From a virus (taxonomy: Duplodnaviria; Caudoviricetes): DNA of 63,192 nt. This document shows positions 21,785 through 54,660 of the stretch, in pieces. Under the pieces are notes generated by a model. The model had not been told where the DNA came from, ran no database searches, and worked only from the letters and a program-made list of their open reading frames with translations. The stretch lies in the IMG/VR virus record IMGVR_UViG_3300044960_000525, positions 1-63,192 of that record. The stretch is one strand, 5' to 3'. The stretch's first letter is position 1. Each line of letters starts with the position of its first letter. The position numbers and the translations under genes are program-made.

Positions 21785-23605
21785 ATGAGTCCTGAACTCA
21801 CCATTCGTGTGCGTGACTCGTTGGGGTTGGAGGCCCGACGGACCGTCTCAGTGCCGGTGGAGACCGGTGCGCCCGTCGTACGCTGGTCCACGCTGGGGTT
21901 GACCCGTACGTCGTCGTACGTCATCCCGTCCGGGGTGACGGTACTGCAGGACGTAGACGACGCCGAGGTTGGCCGCCTCCAAGTCCTCGGTGTGCTGCGA
22001 GCAGATCGCACCCGCCCGACACGCCTCCGACTCTACGGGAACCTGGTCGTCACGGAAGGGGGTGTGGTGGACTACGGCACGCCGGAGGACCCGGTGCTGG
22101 TGGACTGTCGGCTGTGGTGGCCCGTGGTGGATGAGTCGCGGATCGTCGGGGGCGGCATGACCGTGCTGGAGACCGACCCCGGGCTGTGGGTGATGCACCA
22201 CGGCAGGCTGCAGACGCACGGCGCGCGCACGACCCCGTGGACGCGCGCCACGAGCGGCCTAGTGGCGGGGCAGAGCGAGTTCACCGTCGAGGATGCGTCC
22301 GGGTGGCGCGCGGGGGACGAACTCGCGATTGCGCCGACCAATCCACCGACGACGCCCTCGTACTGGATGCAGACGGAGCGGCGCATCATCGCATCAGTCA
22401 GCGGCAACGTCGTGCGGCTGACGCTCCCGCTGTCGGTGGCGCACCCCGCGGTGGTCACGCCGTGGGCGACGTACACCGCGGAAGTCGCGAACCTCACGCG
22501 CACGGTGAAGATCGGCGGGACACCAACCGGTCGCGCGCACATCTTCATCCACGCGCATCATCCACAGGCGATCCACTACGCGGAGTTGCACCACCTGGGC
22601 CCGCTGGGCACAGGACGAGGACGCTACGCGCTGCACTATCATCACAACTTCGATGGCACCGACGGTACGGTCGAGGAGGGTGTGGTCGCGCACGACATCG
22701 GGAGTAACGCGTTCGTCCCGCACCTGAGTAGCGGGATCACGTTCCGCCAATTCGTTGCCGCGTTCATCAAGGACAACGCCTTCTGGTTCGACCCGCGTCG
22801 CACGAATCCGAACGAAGCCTTCATGGATTGGGGGCGTGTGACCTACGACCGCTGTCTCTCGATCCAGGTCGGCGATGGCGGCAACGACGACCACTATTTC
22901 CTCGGGGCGGGTGTGGGCAACCGCTGCCTCGACTGCGTGGCGGTCGGCGGCGAGGCCAAGGGCTTCAACTGGCCCGAGGATGAGAGTTTGGGGAGTCAGC
23001 CGGGGCAGGGGGTGTGGGAGTTCCGTCACGGGCTCGCGCACAACGTGCGGTTCCTCGGTCTGCGGAGTTGGCAGAACGATCCCTGGCTGCACACCATCGA
23101 CGGGTTCGATGGATACTACTGCCGCGAACAGGGACGTGAACCGTTCGCGGTGGAGTTGGGCGCGTACACCCTGCGCTACCAGATGCACCGGTTGCGCCTG
23201 TGGTGGCCCTCGGGGATCAAGACCCACGCGGTCGGGATCGACCACTATCACCACGAGCAGGATGGTCGCGGCGTGGAGGACTTCGCCCTCTGGGCGCGGG
23301 ACGACCAAGCGTTCAGCGAGCATGTCCCGCGTCTCATCGTGGCCCCCGTCTGGCGGAACTATCGGGTCGCGGGACTGGGCGTCCTGCGTACCACCGATGG
23401 GCAAGGTCGTTTGCAGGCCGTCAAGTACGAACTTCGCAACCCACAGACCCCGGGGACGCCGACGCCCGTGTGGTTCGCGGACGACTGTCACCCGGACTGT
23501 GAGGTGCTGCTCGTCCGCGACGGTCAGCCCACGCTGCGTCTGCGACGGCGGGATCAGCCGGGGACGTATGACCCGCGATTCAACGCGTCGGTGACGGTGC
23601 TCTGA
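21785..23605 (+). CDS. G8-domain/beta-helix-like protein (possible receptor-binding protein or depolymerase)
   Basis: AEVANLTRTVKI, LGPLG..GRYALHYH and FVPHLSSG motifs like G8/PbH1 proteins; GC-rich codon use. Confidence 0.65.
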   Translation: MSPELTIRVRDSLGLEARRTVSVPVETGAPVVRWSTLGLTRTSSYVIPSGVTVLQDVDDAEVGRLQVLGVLRADRTRPTRLRLYGNLVVTEGGVVDYGTPEDPVLVDCRLWWPVVDESRIVGGGMTVLETDPGLWVMHHGRLQTHGARTTPWTRATSGLVAGQSEFTVEDASGWRAGDELAIAPTNPPTTPSYWMQTERRIIASVSGNVVRLTLPLSVAHPAVVTPWATYTAEVANLTRTVKIGGTPTGRAHIFIHAHHPQAIHYAELHHLGPLGTGRGRYALHYHHNFDGTDGTVEEGVVAHDIGSNAFVPHLSSGITFRQFVAAFIKDNAFWFDPRRTNPNEAFMDWGRVTYDRCLSIQVGDGGNDDHYFLGAGVGNRCLDCVAVGGEAKGFNWPEDESLGSQPGQGVWEFRHGLAHNVRFLGLRSWQNDPWLHTIDGFDGYYCREQGREPFAVELGAYTLRYQMHRLRLWWPSGIKTHAVGIDHYHHEQDGRGVEDFALWARDDQAFSEHVPRLIVAPVWRNYRVAGLGVLRTTDGQGRLQAVKYELRNPQTPGTPTPVWFADDCHPDCEVLLVRDGQPTLRLRRRDQPGTYDPRFNASVTVL

Positions 23606-52320: not shown

Positions 52321-53160
52321 ATGACCGACAGTGTGCAGACCGCTGACGTGCGTCAGGACGGCGATGTGCTCCATCGCTTGCGACGCGATCTCCGTCGAGC
52401 GATGGTGACGCTCTCACCGCAAGAGGTGCGGTACCTGGTTGACGCCTACTACACGATGCAGAAACAGCGCATCCGTGCGGGGAACCAGGCCACCGCGATG
52501 CGCAAGGTGGGAGAGCCCAATGAGGCGGTCACCTGGTACATGGAGGAGTCGGAGCGCCTGGAGGAGGAGGTGTACGGGGTTCTCCGGGCGTACGCTCAAG
52601 GGCACCCTGTGGGGCAATGGTCGCTCTCCATCGTCGGTATTGGGCCTGTGATCTCTGCAGGACTGCTGGCGCACATTGACATCGAGCGCGCACCGACGGT
52701 CGGGCACATCTGGCGGTTTGCTGGGCTCGATCCCACGGTGACATGGGAGCGGGGCGCGAAGCGGCCCTTCAACCGACGGCTCAAAGTGATTTGCTGGCAC
52801 ATCGGCGAGTCATTCAAGCGCACCAGCGGTCATGCGCGATCGTTCTACGGTCCGCTCTACCGGGCACGCAAGGCCCTGGAGGAGCAGCGGAACGCGGAGG
52901 GGCTCTACGCCGAGCAGGCTGCGCGCACGCTGCGGGAGCGACCCACCCACGCGCAGCGGGATATCTACGCGGAGGGGCGTCTGCCGCAGGGTCGTCTCGA
53001 CTTGCGGGCGACGCGATGGGTGACGAAACTCTTTCTAGCGCACTGGCACCACGTCGCCTACGTGGTGCGCTATGGGACCGCGCCGCCGAAGCCCTACGTC
53101 ATCAGCGTGATGGGCCACGGGGACTACATCGCGCCGCCCAATTGGCCGATGCCAGAGTAG
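52321..53160 (+). CDS. tasA: TIGR-associated Nop-domain protein without nuclease domain (TasA-like)
   Basis: Coiled-coil (YLVDAYYTMQKQRIR) plus IS110/Nop-type SIVGIGPVISAGLL...IWRFAGLDP and KLFLAHW; no RuvC or HNH; directly followed by a 36-nt dual-repeat array. Confidence 0.85.
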   Translation: MTDSVQTADVRQDGDVLHRLRRDLRRAMVTLSPQEVRYLVDAYYTMQKQRIRAGNQATAMRKVGEPNEAVTWYMEESERLEEEVYGVLRAYAQGHPVGQWSLSIVGIGPVISAGLLAHIDIERAPTVGHIWRFAGLDPTVTWERGAKRPFNRRLKVICWHIGESFKRTSGHARSFYGPLYRARKALEEQRNAEGLYAEQAARTLRERPTHAQRDIYAEGRLPQGRLDLRATRWVTKLFLAHWHHVAYVVRYGTAPPKPYVISVMGHGDYIAPPNWPMPE

Positions 53161-53171
53161 GGGTGCAGAGT

Positions 53172-53548
53172 AGCCGCGGAGAGTACCGCGAGTTCGGAGC
53201 GAGCCGTGAGGAGCGAGAGTACCGTGGCTGCAGAGCGAGCCGAAGGCGAGGAGAGTACCGCCTGGTGCGAGCGAGCCGAGTCGGGAGAGAGTACCGTTGG
53301 CGGAGAGCGAGCCGTGGTCACCGAGAGTACCGTGGACAGGGAGCGAGCCGCGCGACAGGAGAGTACCGTGAAACCGGAGCGAGCCGAAAGTGCGGAGAGT
53401 ACCGTGGGCCCTGAGCGAGCCGGGGCTGTCGAGAGTGCCGTTGCTGGTGAGCGAGCCGCGAGGGACGAGAGTACCGTGGGAACCGAGCGAGCCGTCCTCT
53501 GGGAGAGTACCGCGTCGCGCGAGCGATCCGTAAGTAGCGAGAGTGAGG
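53172..53548 (+). ncRNA. TIGR (tandem interspaced guide RNA) array: 9 full 36-nt units plus degenerate end units
   Basis: Unit AGCCG-N9-AGAGTACCG-N9-AGCG; loop repeat recurs exactly every 36 nt from 53180 to 53540; all spacers differ. Confidence 0.9.
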
Positions 53549-53578
53549 GTTCGATTCGGAGTGGGGAGGGAAACAGCG

Positions 53579-53779
53579 ATGGCGTATCTGCGTACATTGC
53601 CTGTGTGCAATGAGTCGGGGTGTACCCGATGGGCAACGCACTCTCTGTATGATGAGGGGGCCATTCGTTTGGGAGACTACTGCAGCCTGCACGCTCTGGC
53701 TGCGCTCCACCGATGGGTGAAGAGACATGATCGTGTTCGCAGTCACAGCACAGAGAAAGAACGGGGAAAGAAGTCATAA
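53579..53779 (+). CDS. Small zinc-binding protein, paralogue family II
   Basis: GGAGG RBS; CNESGC...LGDYCSLHA. Confidence 0.65.
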   Translation: MAYLRTLPVCNESGCTRWATHSLYDEGAIRLGDYCSLHALAALHRWVKRHDRVRSHSTEKERGKKS

Positions 53780-53790
53780 CCAAGTCCCTG

Positions 53791-54660
53791 ATGGAGGACG
53801 AAGTGACCGGGAGAATCTACCTGGCGGACAACCTGGAGGTTCTTCGAACACTACCGGCTGAGTCCGTGGACCTTGTCTATATTGATCCCCCATTCAACAC
53901 GGGCAAGGTCCAGCAGCGCACCCATCTGAAGACTGTGCGCTCGTCGAAAGGTGGCCGTGTCGGTTTCCAGGGTCGTCGTTACAAGAGTATCGTCGTGGGA
54001 ACGAGACGCTTTGCCGACCTCTTCGATGACTACTTGGCCTTCCTGGAGCCGCGCCTCACCGAGGCTCATCGAGTCCTGGCCCCTCACGGGTCCTTCTACT
54101 TCCACATTGATTACCGCGAGGTGCATTACTGCAAGGTCCTCCTCGACCACATCTTCGGGCGGGAGTGCTTTCTGAACGAGATCATCTGGGCCTATGACTA
54201 CGGTGGTCGGCCCAAGGACCGGTGGCCGCCGAAGCACGACAACATTCTCCTCTACGTGAAGAACCCGTCGAAGTATATCTTCAACGTGGACGCGATTGAG
54301 CGAATCCCGTATATGACGCCTGGTCTTGTGGGACCAGAAAAGGCGGCGCGGGGGAAACTCCCGACCGACACGTGGTGGCACACCATCGTGCCAACGAACA
54401 GTGTGGAGAAGACGGGGTATCCGACACAAAAACCGCTCGGGATTCTTCGACGTATTGTCATGGCTTCTTCACGACCAGGAGCATTAGTTCTGGACTTTTT
54501 TGCGGGGAGCGGAACCACTGGTGTTGCAGCGTTGGAATGTGGGCGGCACTTTCTTTTGGTGGACAATAATCCAGAGGCCCTTGAGGTCATGGCTAAGCGG
54601 TTCGACGGTGTGGACGGTATTGAGTGGGTCGGATTCAACCCCGTGGTCAAGCGGAGATAG
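53791..54660 (+). CDS. Amino DNA methyltransferase (N6A/N4C, beta class), orphan
   Basis: IDPPF motif IV precedes YPTQKP and LDFFAGSGTT motif I. Confidence 0.93.
   Translation: MEDEVTGRIYLADNLEVLRTLPAESVDLVYIDPPFNTGKVQQRTHLKTVRSSKGGRVGFQGRRYKSIVVGTRRFADLFDDYLAFLEPRLTEAHRVLAPHGSFYFHIDYREVHYCKVLLDHIFGRECFLNEIIWAYDYGGRPKDRWPPKHDNILLYVKNPSKYIFNVDAIERIPYMTPGLVGPEKAARGKLPTDTWWHTIVPTNSVEKTGYPTQKPLGILRRIVMASSRPGALVLDFFAGSGTTGVAALECGRHFLLVDNNPEALEVMAKRFDGVDGIEWVGFNPVVKRR

Follow-up and report, generated by a model that had tools for sequence, protein, structure and literature searches.

The window, by which we mean the whole 63,192-nt stretch of DNA analyzed here, is a 63-kb contig encoding terminase, portal, protease, major head, tape measure, tail, and replication proteins; this gene content assigns it to a tailed phage. 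On its plus strand, the gene tasA (52321..53160) encodes a 279-aa TIGR-associated protein, which comprises a coiled coil and a Nop domain and lacks a nuclease domain. A dual-repeat TIGR array follows on the same strand (53172-53561), beginning 12 nt 3' of the tasA stop codon and built from two alternating 10-nt repeats and, as read here, 8-nt spacers in a 36-nt unit. No second array is present anywhere in the 63-kb window. A promoter scan of the locus yielded no promoter, and a terminator scan returned two weak terminator-like sites, neither of them directly 3' of the array. The array is directly followed by a Cys-rich ORF of 78 aa (53543-53779) with a weak EsV_1_7_cys match (E 0.003, below cutoff) and then by an N6/N4 DNA methyltransferase gene (53791-54660; Pfam N6_N4_Mtase, E 3e-46; PADLOC MTase_II, 475 bits).

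The TasA sequence scores 191.3 bits against the NCBIfam model NF052498 (TIGR_Tas_endo, “TIGR-Tas system RNA-guided endonuclease”), for which the cutoff is 100. A phmmer search of the PDB aligned residues 22-276 with residues 102-322 of the TIGR-TasR chain 9mty_A (E 1.7e-16), the best sequence match over coiled coil and Nop domain, and also retrieved TasH chains (E 6e-8). The alignment starts at residue 102 of TasR and leaves just 21 residues of TasA on its N-terminal side, too few for a nuclease domain. An AF2 model of TasA (pLDDT 88.7) is all-helical from residue 10 onwards, and a Foldseek comparison of this model with the PDB placed TIGR-TasR (9mty) and TasH complexes on top, followed by IS621. 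In a 22-sequence alignment, Y259 and G265-H266 align with the Y..H processing dyad of SpTasH. The TasA family counts 5211 proteins at E 1e-3 or better, the best non-self match sharing 63% identity. We thus assign the protein to TasA, the Tas proteins without N-terminal HNH or RuvC domain. Pfam returned Transposase_20 alone (24.4 bits); an IS110-family transposase was considered and rejected, as the score against NF033542 (transpos_IS110) is 23.7 bits versus a cutoff of 140 and the N-terminal (DEDD/RuvC) domain is absent.

TIGR arrays are defined by two alternating repeats of 8-12 nt (Faure et al., PMC12045711, section 4), and the window array accordingly displays distinct alternating repeats, spacers of ~8-9 nt, and a 36-nt unit beside a tas gene. 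Between 53179 and 53530, the two short repeats alternate at a strict 18-nt spacing, the 10-nt edge repeat being GAGCGAGCCG and the 10-nt loop repeat GAGAGTACCG. The string AGAGTACCG occurs in ten copies from 53180 onwards, nine of them exact and the one at 53432 with a single mismatch, and AGCGAGCCG likewise in ten copies from 53198, with a single mismatch confined to the copy at 53522. TRF reports periods of 36, 72, and 108 in the array. Both repeats take the form GAG....CCG, opening with box D and closing with box C, and the boxes of edge and loop repeat are identical; box C reads CCG in both, where CCA is usual, a feature shared with the array of locus L016 and 13 further arrays. Nine complete 36-nt units, predicted to give tigRNAs 1-9, span 53202..53525 on the plus strand, each consisting of AGCCG, an N8 spacer A, GAGAGTACCG, an N8 spacer B, and GAGCG. 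They are preceded by a defective leader-proximal unit (53172..53201, plus strand), in which AGCCG, the remnant of a 5'-truncated edge repeat (53172-53176), is followed by only 2 nt (CG) in place of spacer A and then by the loop repeat, an 8-nt spacer, and GAGCG. At the 3' end, a degenerate terminal unit (53526..53561, plus strand) reads ATCCG, TAAGTAGC, GAGAGTGAGG, GTTCGATT, and CGGAG; here box C is gone from the loop repeat, the closing edge repeat is unrecognizable, and no convincing terminator lies directly behind.

TRF also detects a near-duplication of 13 nt just 5' of the array (period 13, 53167-53190; region 53154-53190), and this together with the 2-nt spacer A may be the scar of a deletion at the leader end. 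An Rfam search of the array returned no match at E up to 1. The array was also compared with CRISPR arrays, for which one repeat of ~25-36 nt, spacers of similar size, and cas genes were taken as criteria. The two alternating 10-nt repeats and 8-nt spacers rule out this assignment, and PADLOC found no match for the neighboring protein. The locus is a TIGR-TasA system of the dual-repeat type in a tailed phage and belongs to an already known kind.

The sequence-only reading of this array had listed its spacers as 9-nt gaps that all end in G, and had joined each spacer A to the reverse complement of spacer B to predict nine 18-bp targets with a common central GC. A script recovered all 18 strings and the nine 18-mers without any deviation. 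The outer gaps at 53189-53197 and 53531-53539 end in G as well, which brings the count from 18/18 to 20/20. Given a G frequency of 0.394 at the other spacer positions, the probability of this outcome is 8e-9 for 20/20 and 5e-8 for 18/18, and the G at every gap end is not due to chance. Given the final G of every gap, a central GC in the 18-mers is a matter of arithmetic and no independent observation. A further compositional bias is visible at the 5' side of spacer B (53189-53520), with T at position 1 in 7/10, G at position 2 in 7/10, and G at position 3 in 6/10 copies. In related arrays, spacer B position 2 is A in 12/13 copies of L016, 83% of those in L015, and 70% of those in L011. Some clades may in effect have a loop repeat that takes up the first 1-3 nt of spacer B; alternatively, the targets may have a common flank.

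We compared the array with 105 related loci from 21 viral contigs, Salicola phage CGphi29, 80 metagenome contigs, and 3 genome contigs, all of which encode TasA relatives except for the Salicola phage with its TasH. Arrays were delineated by a chain-scoring parser that left the base in question unscored. After removal of duplicates, 84 loci including the window were retained, and an array was found in 66 of these; several of the 18 loci in which the parser found none are short or cut contigs. At locus L014, a TasA relative is flanked (at about 2139 and 3435) by repeats with a period of 37 and 38 instead of 36, which the parser did not resolve. The first base of the repeat is in its majority G in 64 of the 65 other arrays and A in the remaining one, that of Salicola phage CGphi29. 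Counted per repeat copy over these 65 arrays, it is G in 1984/2499 and a purine in 2342/2499 cases. The share of G reaches at least 90% in only 30/65 arrays and lies well below 90% in some, partly because the parser takes in degenerate or mis-registered copies. In the same arrays, 2138 spacers are 8 nt long, 188 are 9 nt, and 42 are 7 nt. The first base moreover changes in parallel in edge and loop repeats, being mostly G/G, A/A in Salicola, and a G/A mix in both repeats of L005 and L007. Motifs read by a symmetric dimer show the same pattern in both repeats (Faure et al., PMC12045711, section 8), and the parallel change fits a base that is read in this way.

The Salicola array (edge repeat AAGCGAGCCA, loop repeat AAGACAACCA, 8-nt spacers) is particularly close in format, its edge repeat matching the window edge repeat GAGCGAGCCG at 8/10 positions and differing only at the first and last base. 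Faure et al. counted 16 variable nt for it (PMC12045711, section 6), and cryo-EM of SpTasH is described as showing an 8-nt spacer A and heteroduplexes one bp shorter than those of TaTasR and PlTasA (10.64898/2026.08.11.744272, sections 5 and 8). The same report places the box C adenine of SpTIGR at tigRNA position 5, in line with a cut between AAGCG and AGCCA, which by analogy would fall between GAGCG and AGCCG in the window. As G is conserved in both repeat types of 64/65 arrays, and A takes its place in the Salicola system with its 8-nt pairing, the spacers would be 8 nt long. The most likely place of the invariant G is position 1 of edge and loop repeats alike, adjoining box D. One of the two options that the sequence-only reading had offered, 8-nt spacers with 10-nt repeats, is thereby supported; the other, 18-bp targets with a fixed central GC, appears over-specified, and the GC is probably an artefact of counting and no targeting requirement. 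By the TIGRFinder convention, which counts box C, 9 nt, and a 2-nt box D (10.64898/2026.09.09.750476), the G of the window would be labeled spacer position 9. The choice between spacer position 9 and repeat position 1 is a matter of convention only, unless the base pairs with DNA.

With regard to target geometry, the published 8-nt 3' overhangs and “C-5” rule (PMC12045711, sections 7 and 8), together with the report that the outer unwinding junctions are where box C and the first paired nucleotide of the tigRNA lie (10.64898/2026.08.11.744272), argue for the order spacer A followed by the reverse complement of spacer B; the opposite order would, by our own derivation, yield 5' overhangs. The pairing of A with B and the target orientation assumed in the sequence-only reading agree with these published features. 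TaTasR is described as tolerating mismatches at spacer edges and gaps of 1-2 bp between half-sites (PMC12045711), and a strict GC requirement would thus be unexpected even if the G pairs. Target searches for such arrays should consequently employ guides of 8+8 nt with the central pair free or absent, and not 18-mers with a fixed GC.

Searches of the array-masked window returned no match with 0 or 1 mismatch for any of the nine 18-mers in the A plus reverse-complement B order, in line with the earlier by-eye statement that full self-matches are absent. The sole near-match within the phage belongs to the unit 9 18-mer (23286-23303, 2 mismatches, inside the ORF 21785-23605) and lies within the rate of shuffled pairings. 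The inverse order, reverse complement of B followed by A, gave 0/9 matches with up to 2 mismatches, and for 16-mers with or without a 2-nt center, neither phase produced a match at 0 or 1 mismatch. Comparison of cognate pairs with the 72 non-cognate A/B pairings at gaps of 0-2 revealed no enrichment in the window, with 2 matches at exactly 2 mismatches versus 1.38 expected per 9 pairs, and 13 versus 16.4 at exactly 3 mismatches. Viral contigs were scanned with four of the nine guides (units 1, 3, 6, and 8) in the form A8-N{0,2}-rc(B8), where 26, 8, 6, and 18 stretches were found, respectively. No two of these 58 exact matches share a contig, and their distribution among the three gap classes is that expected by chance; those with a 2-nt center carry GC in 0/17 cases and look like chance matches. 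Within the matching stretches, 4 secondary matches with 2 mismatches were counted, where the 72 non-cognate pairings predict 11.9 for nine guides; a second guide matches at 2 mismatches in three stretches (L046, L070, and L079). Guides of 16 nt yield many chance matches according to the literature, and the scan supports no firm conclusion. No target was identified in the window with all nine guides or in viral contigs with the four guides used.

Other readings of the array were weighed against these data. The G could be a true ninth guide nucleotide that pairs with C on each strand, in which case all targets of the G-type clade would carry a central 5'-GC-3'. Pairing with DNA is indeed described for the ninth nucleotide of the interval from box C to box D in TaTasR and PlTasA, and this interval likewise spans 9 nt in the window. 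In sequence, the window TasA is nearer to TaTasR, with its 9-nt pairing, than to SpTasH, with 8 nt; the almost exclusive presence of a purine at this position is by itself compatible with pairing. A guide base should vary, yet this one is fixed across 64/65 arrays from very different samples, and the homologous A of SpTIGR is reported to lie outside the 8-bp heteroduplex. Considering the edge mismatches and 1-2-bp gaps tolerated by TaTasR, a paired G would add little specificity. The absence of a GC center from all 17 exact 8+NN+8 matches in viral contigs points in the same direction, albeit weakly, as these matches resemble chance. We therefore regard a pairing G as unlikely. If it were true, a system described as motif-free would turn out to have an internal sequence requirement, the first of its kind; this could explain the conservation from array to array, and would render target prediction smaller and sharper for thousands of arrays.

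A shift of the phase by half a unit, which would make GAGAGTACCG the edge repeat and leave all nine predicted targets wrongly assembled, draws on the two ends of the array: it opens with a full GAGAGTACCG (53179), its last recognizable element is a 3'-truncated GAGAGT (53539-53544), and both superficially fit the rule that arrays begin and end with an edge repeat, as stated in PMC12045711. The terminal bases of the 4-nt core are, however, complementary in 0.90 of GAGCGAGCCG copies versus 0.00 of GAGAGTACCG copies, and such complementarity is the published edge-repeat criterion of TIGRFinder (10.64898/2026.09.09.750476). The core ends are C4:G7 in GAGCGAGCCG versus A4/A7 in the loop repeat, and relatives display T4:A7, a change from C:G to T:A whose covariation supports an additional base pair in the edge repeat. 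Moreover, the arrays of L003 and L006, whose repeats are near-identical, start with AGCCA and end with GAGCG, and an AGCCG remnant is retained at 53172-53176 of the window. Matches to the window with 0 or 1 mismatch are absent in either phase. Core complementarity, T:A relatives, and the termini of L003 and L006 agree on GAGCGAGCCG as the edge repeat, which leaves the shifted phase very improbable; the phase originally proposed, with units from 53202 and AGCGAGCCG as edge repeat, can be trusted. Hardly credible is a protein-coding tandem repeat of 12 residues, or a non-functional tandem repeat without any RNA-guide role. Three of the six frames are indeed open across the window array, and ORFs run through it, such as 53206-53613 (plus strand) and 53124-53783 (minus strand), but long ORFs through the array (52743-53783, both strands) exist solely owing to its low A and T content. 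Among 20 related arrays, 12 have no frame open over the whole array, and all arrays of at least 478 nt (9/20) are interrupted in all six frames. The 7- and 9-nt spacers would shift the frame, conservation resides in nucleotide repeats and not in a codon pattern, and an array stands beside a curated Tas protein in 66/84 non-duplicate loci. Gene callers may wrongly annotate the ORFs that run through the array.

We favor, with a probability of about 0.82, a phage TIGR-TasA array that gives rise to self-processed 36-nt tigRNAs with a structural G and an 8+8-nt guide, and that acts by binding without cleavage. Array anatomy, family membership, conservation of the G across the family, and the edge/loop phase are shown by the present analysis. 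The array is probably transcribed together with tasA, and by analogy with SpTasH and TaTasR the transcript would be cut in the middle of the edge repeat, between GAGCG and AGCCG. A metal-independent Tyr/His dyad is described to mature pre-tigRNA in dual-repeat systems (PMC13421893, section 15; 10.64898/2026.09.09.750476, section 10), and judging by homology the cutting enzyme is probably TasA itself, acting through its conserved Tyr259/His266 dyad. The predicted products are nine 36-nt tigRNAs of the form 5'-AGCCG-N8-GAGAGUACCG-N8-GAGCG-3'. Each of these would be bound by a TasA dimer, with the two Nop domains holding CCG (box C, at the repeat end) and GAG (box D side, at the repeat start), and the invariant G would occupy a structural, protein-bound position beside box D instead of serving as a guide base, leaving a guide of 8+8 nt. 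Spacers A and B would pair with adjacent stretches of opposite DNA strands, such that the spacer 3' ends meet in the middle of a site composed of A8 and then rc(B8), possibly with 0-2 bp in between. As TasA is devoid of a nuclease, the complex would be expected to block its site by binding, for instance by repressing transcription, and not to cut; DNA binding and transcription repression are described for TasA and dead TasR (10.64898/2026.09.09.750476, section 12). Processing, 8-bp pairing, and binding without cleavage are thus predicted from published relatives, where the analogy with SpTasH is drawn from array format and not from closeness of the proteins; the stem-loop PlTasA, like TaTasR, pairs 9 nt.

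Among characterized systems, TIGR-TasH of Salicola phage CGphi29 (PDB 9W03, 9W04, and others) shares with the window a phage-encoded dual-repeat array with 10-nt repeats, 8-nt spacers, and a 36-nt unit, and SpTasH and the window TasA have the fold and the Tyr/His processing dyad in common, at only about 21% identity. The window protein has no nuclease and thus lacks the N-terminal HNH domain of SpTasH, a protein that cuts DNA; the Salicola array further differs in the first repeat base (A versus G) and in box C (CCA versus CCG). TaTasR from Thermoproteota (PDB 9MTY), the best PDB match of the window protein, likewise combines a dual-repeat array, a 36-nt tigRNA, box C/box D logic, and tandem-spacer targeting, as described in PMC12045711. 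It differs by an active RuvC domain, 9-nt spacers that are all paired with DNA, UG/CCA boxes, and a Trp at the position of the processing Tyr of the window family. FpTasA, MbTasA, and PlTasA resemble the window protein in being described as Nop-only, tigRNA-bound proteins. For MbTasA, DNA binding and guide-dependent transcription repression are described (10.64898/2026.09.09.750476, section 12), whereas PlTasA differs by stem-loop tigRNAs and 9-bp pairing (10.64898/2026.08.11.744272) and FpTIGR by 18 variable nt, according to PMC12045711. IS110/IS621 bridge-RNA recombinases and archaeal box C/D sRNPs (Nop5) share an RNA-binding Nop-like fold (Foldseek IS621, E 3e-3) and a two-guide RNA. They employ a single guide RNA, whereas the window guides form an array, and the window has no DEDD/RuvC transposase domain, k-turn boxes, or fibrillarin partner. 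With its nine intact guides, the locus is a well-preserved addition to the TasA systems, and the 63-kb tailed-phage contig around it looks complete, which makes it a useful setting for asking which role nuclease-free TIGR systems have in phages.

Comparison of TasA relatives with their arrays pointed at a further protein–RNA correspondence. The residue aligned to SpTasH His256, R225 in the window, tracks the third base of box C (CCG versus CCA), in an alignment of about 21% identity and with the Salicola row misplaced in a larger third alignment. His256 is reported to stack on the box C adenine in SpTasH (10.64898/2026.08.11.744272). Loci with Arg-type TasA comprise 14 arrays with at least 50% G at the end of box C (window, L016, L081, L083, L084, L088, L097, L098, L106, L107, L111, L123, L136, and L144) and 3 arrays with 30-50% G, and all arrays alongside His-type (39 arrays) or Gln-type (5 arrays) TasA have less than 30% G and are CCA arrays. 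On a 61-row tree, from which 23 rows were left out, the association holds in 17/17 and 44/44 cases. The best tree shows 7 coincident changes, but a single one is required by well-supported branches, and independent origins are thus not established. An Asp two residues after the Arg is found in the window (R225-D227, 52993-53001) and in most Arg-type proteins. The searched passages of TIGR-Tas papers contain no mention of a link between Arg/His and CCG/CCA. This switch gives tests of box C recognition by Tas proteins a concrete starting point.

Variants of the array were found in short contigs from four coded runs (X1, X3, X5, and X9), labeled as hot-spring and microbial-mat metagenomes; all of these contigs are DNA, and the locus turned up in no RNA run. 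A 1200-nt contig of run X1 equals 53038-54000 without any difference, and possibly stems from the sample of the window itself, so that it does not count as independent. Short contigs of all four runs carry the same two repeats with other spacers, and the base before AG is, by eye, G at 10/11 repeat starts and A at one. Over the region 53161-53500, contigs of these runs also display joints that skip or repeat units. From the other spacers and the unit joints, it follows that guide sets differ among related phages of these communities.
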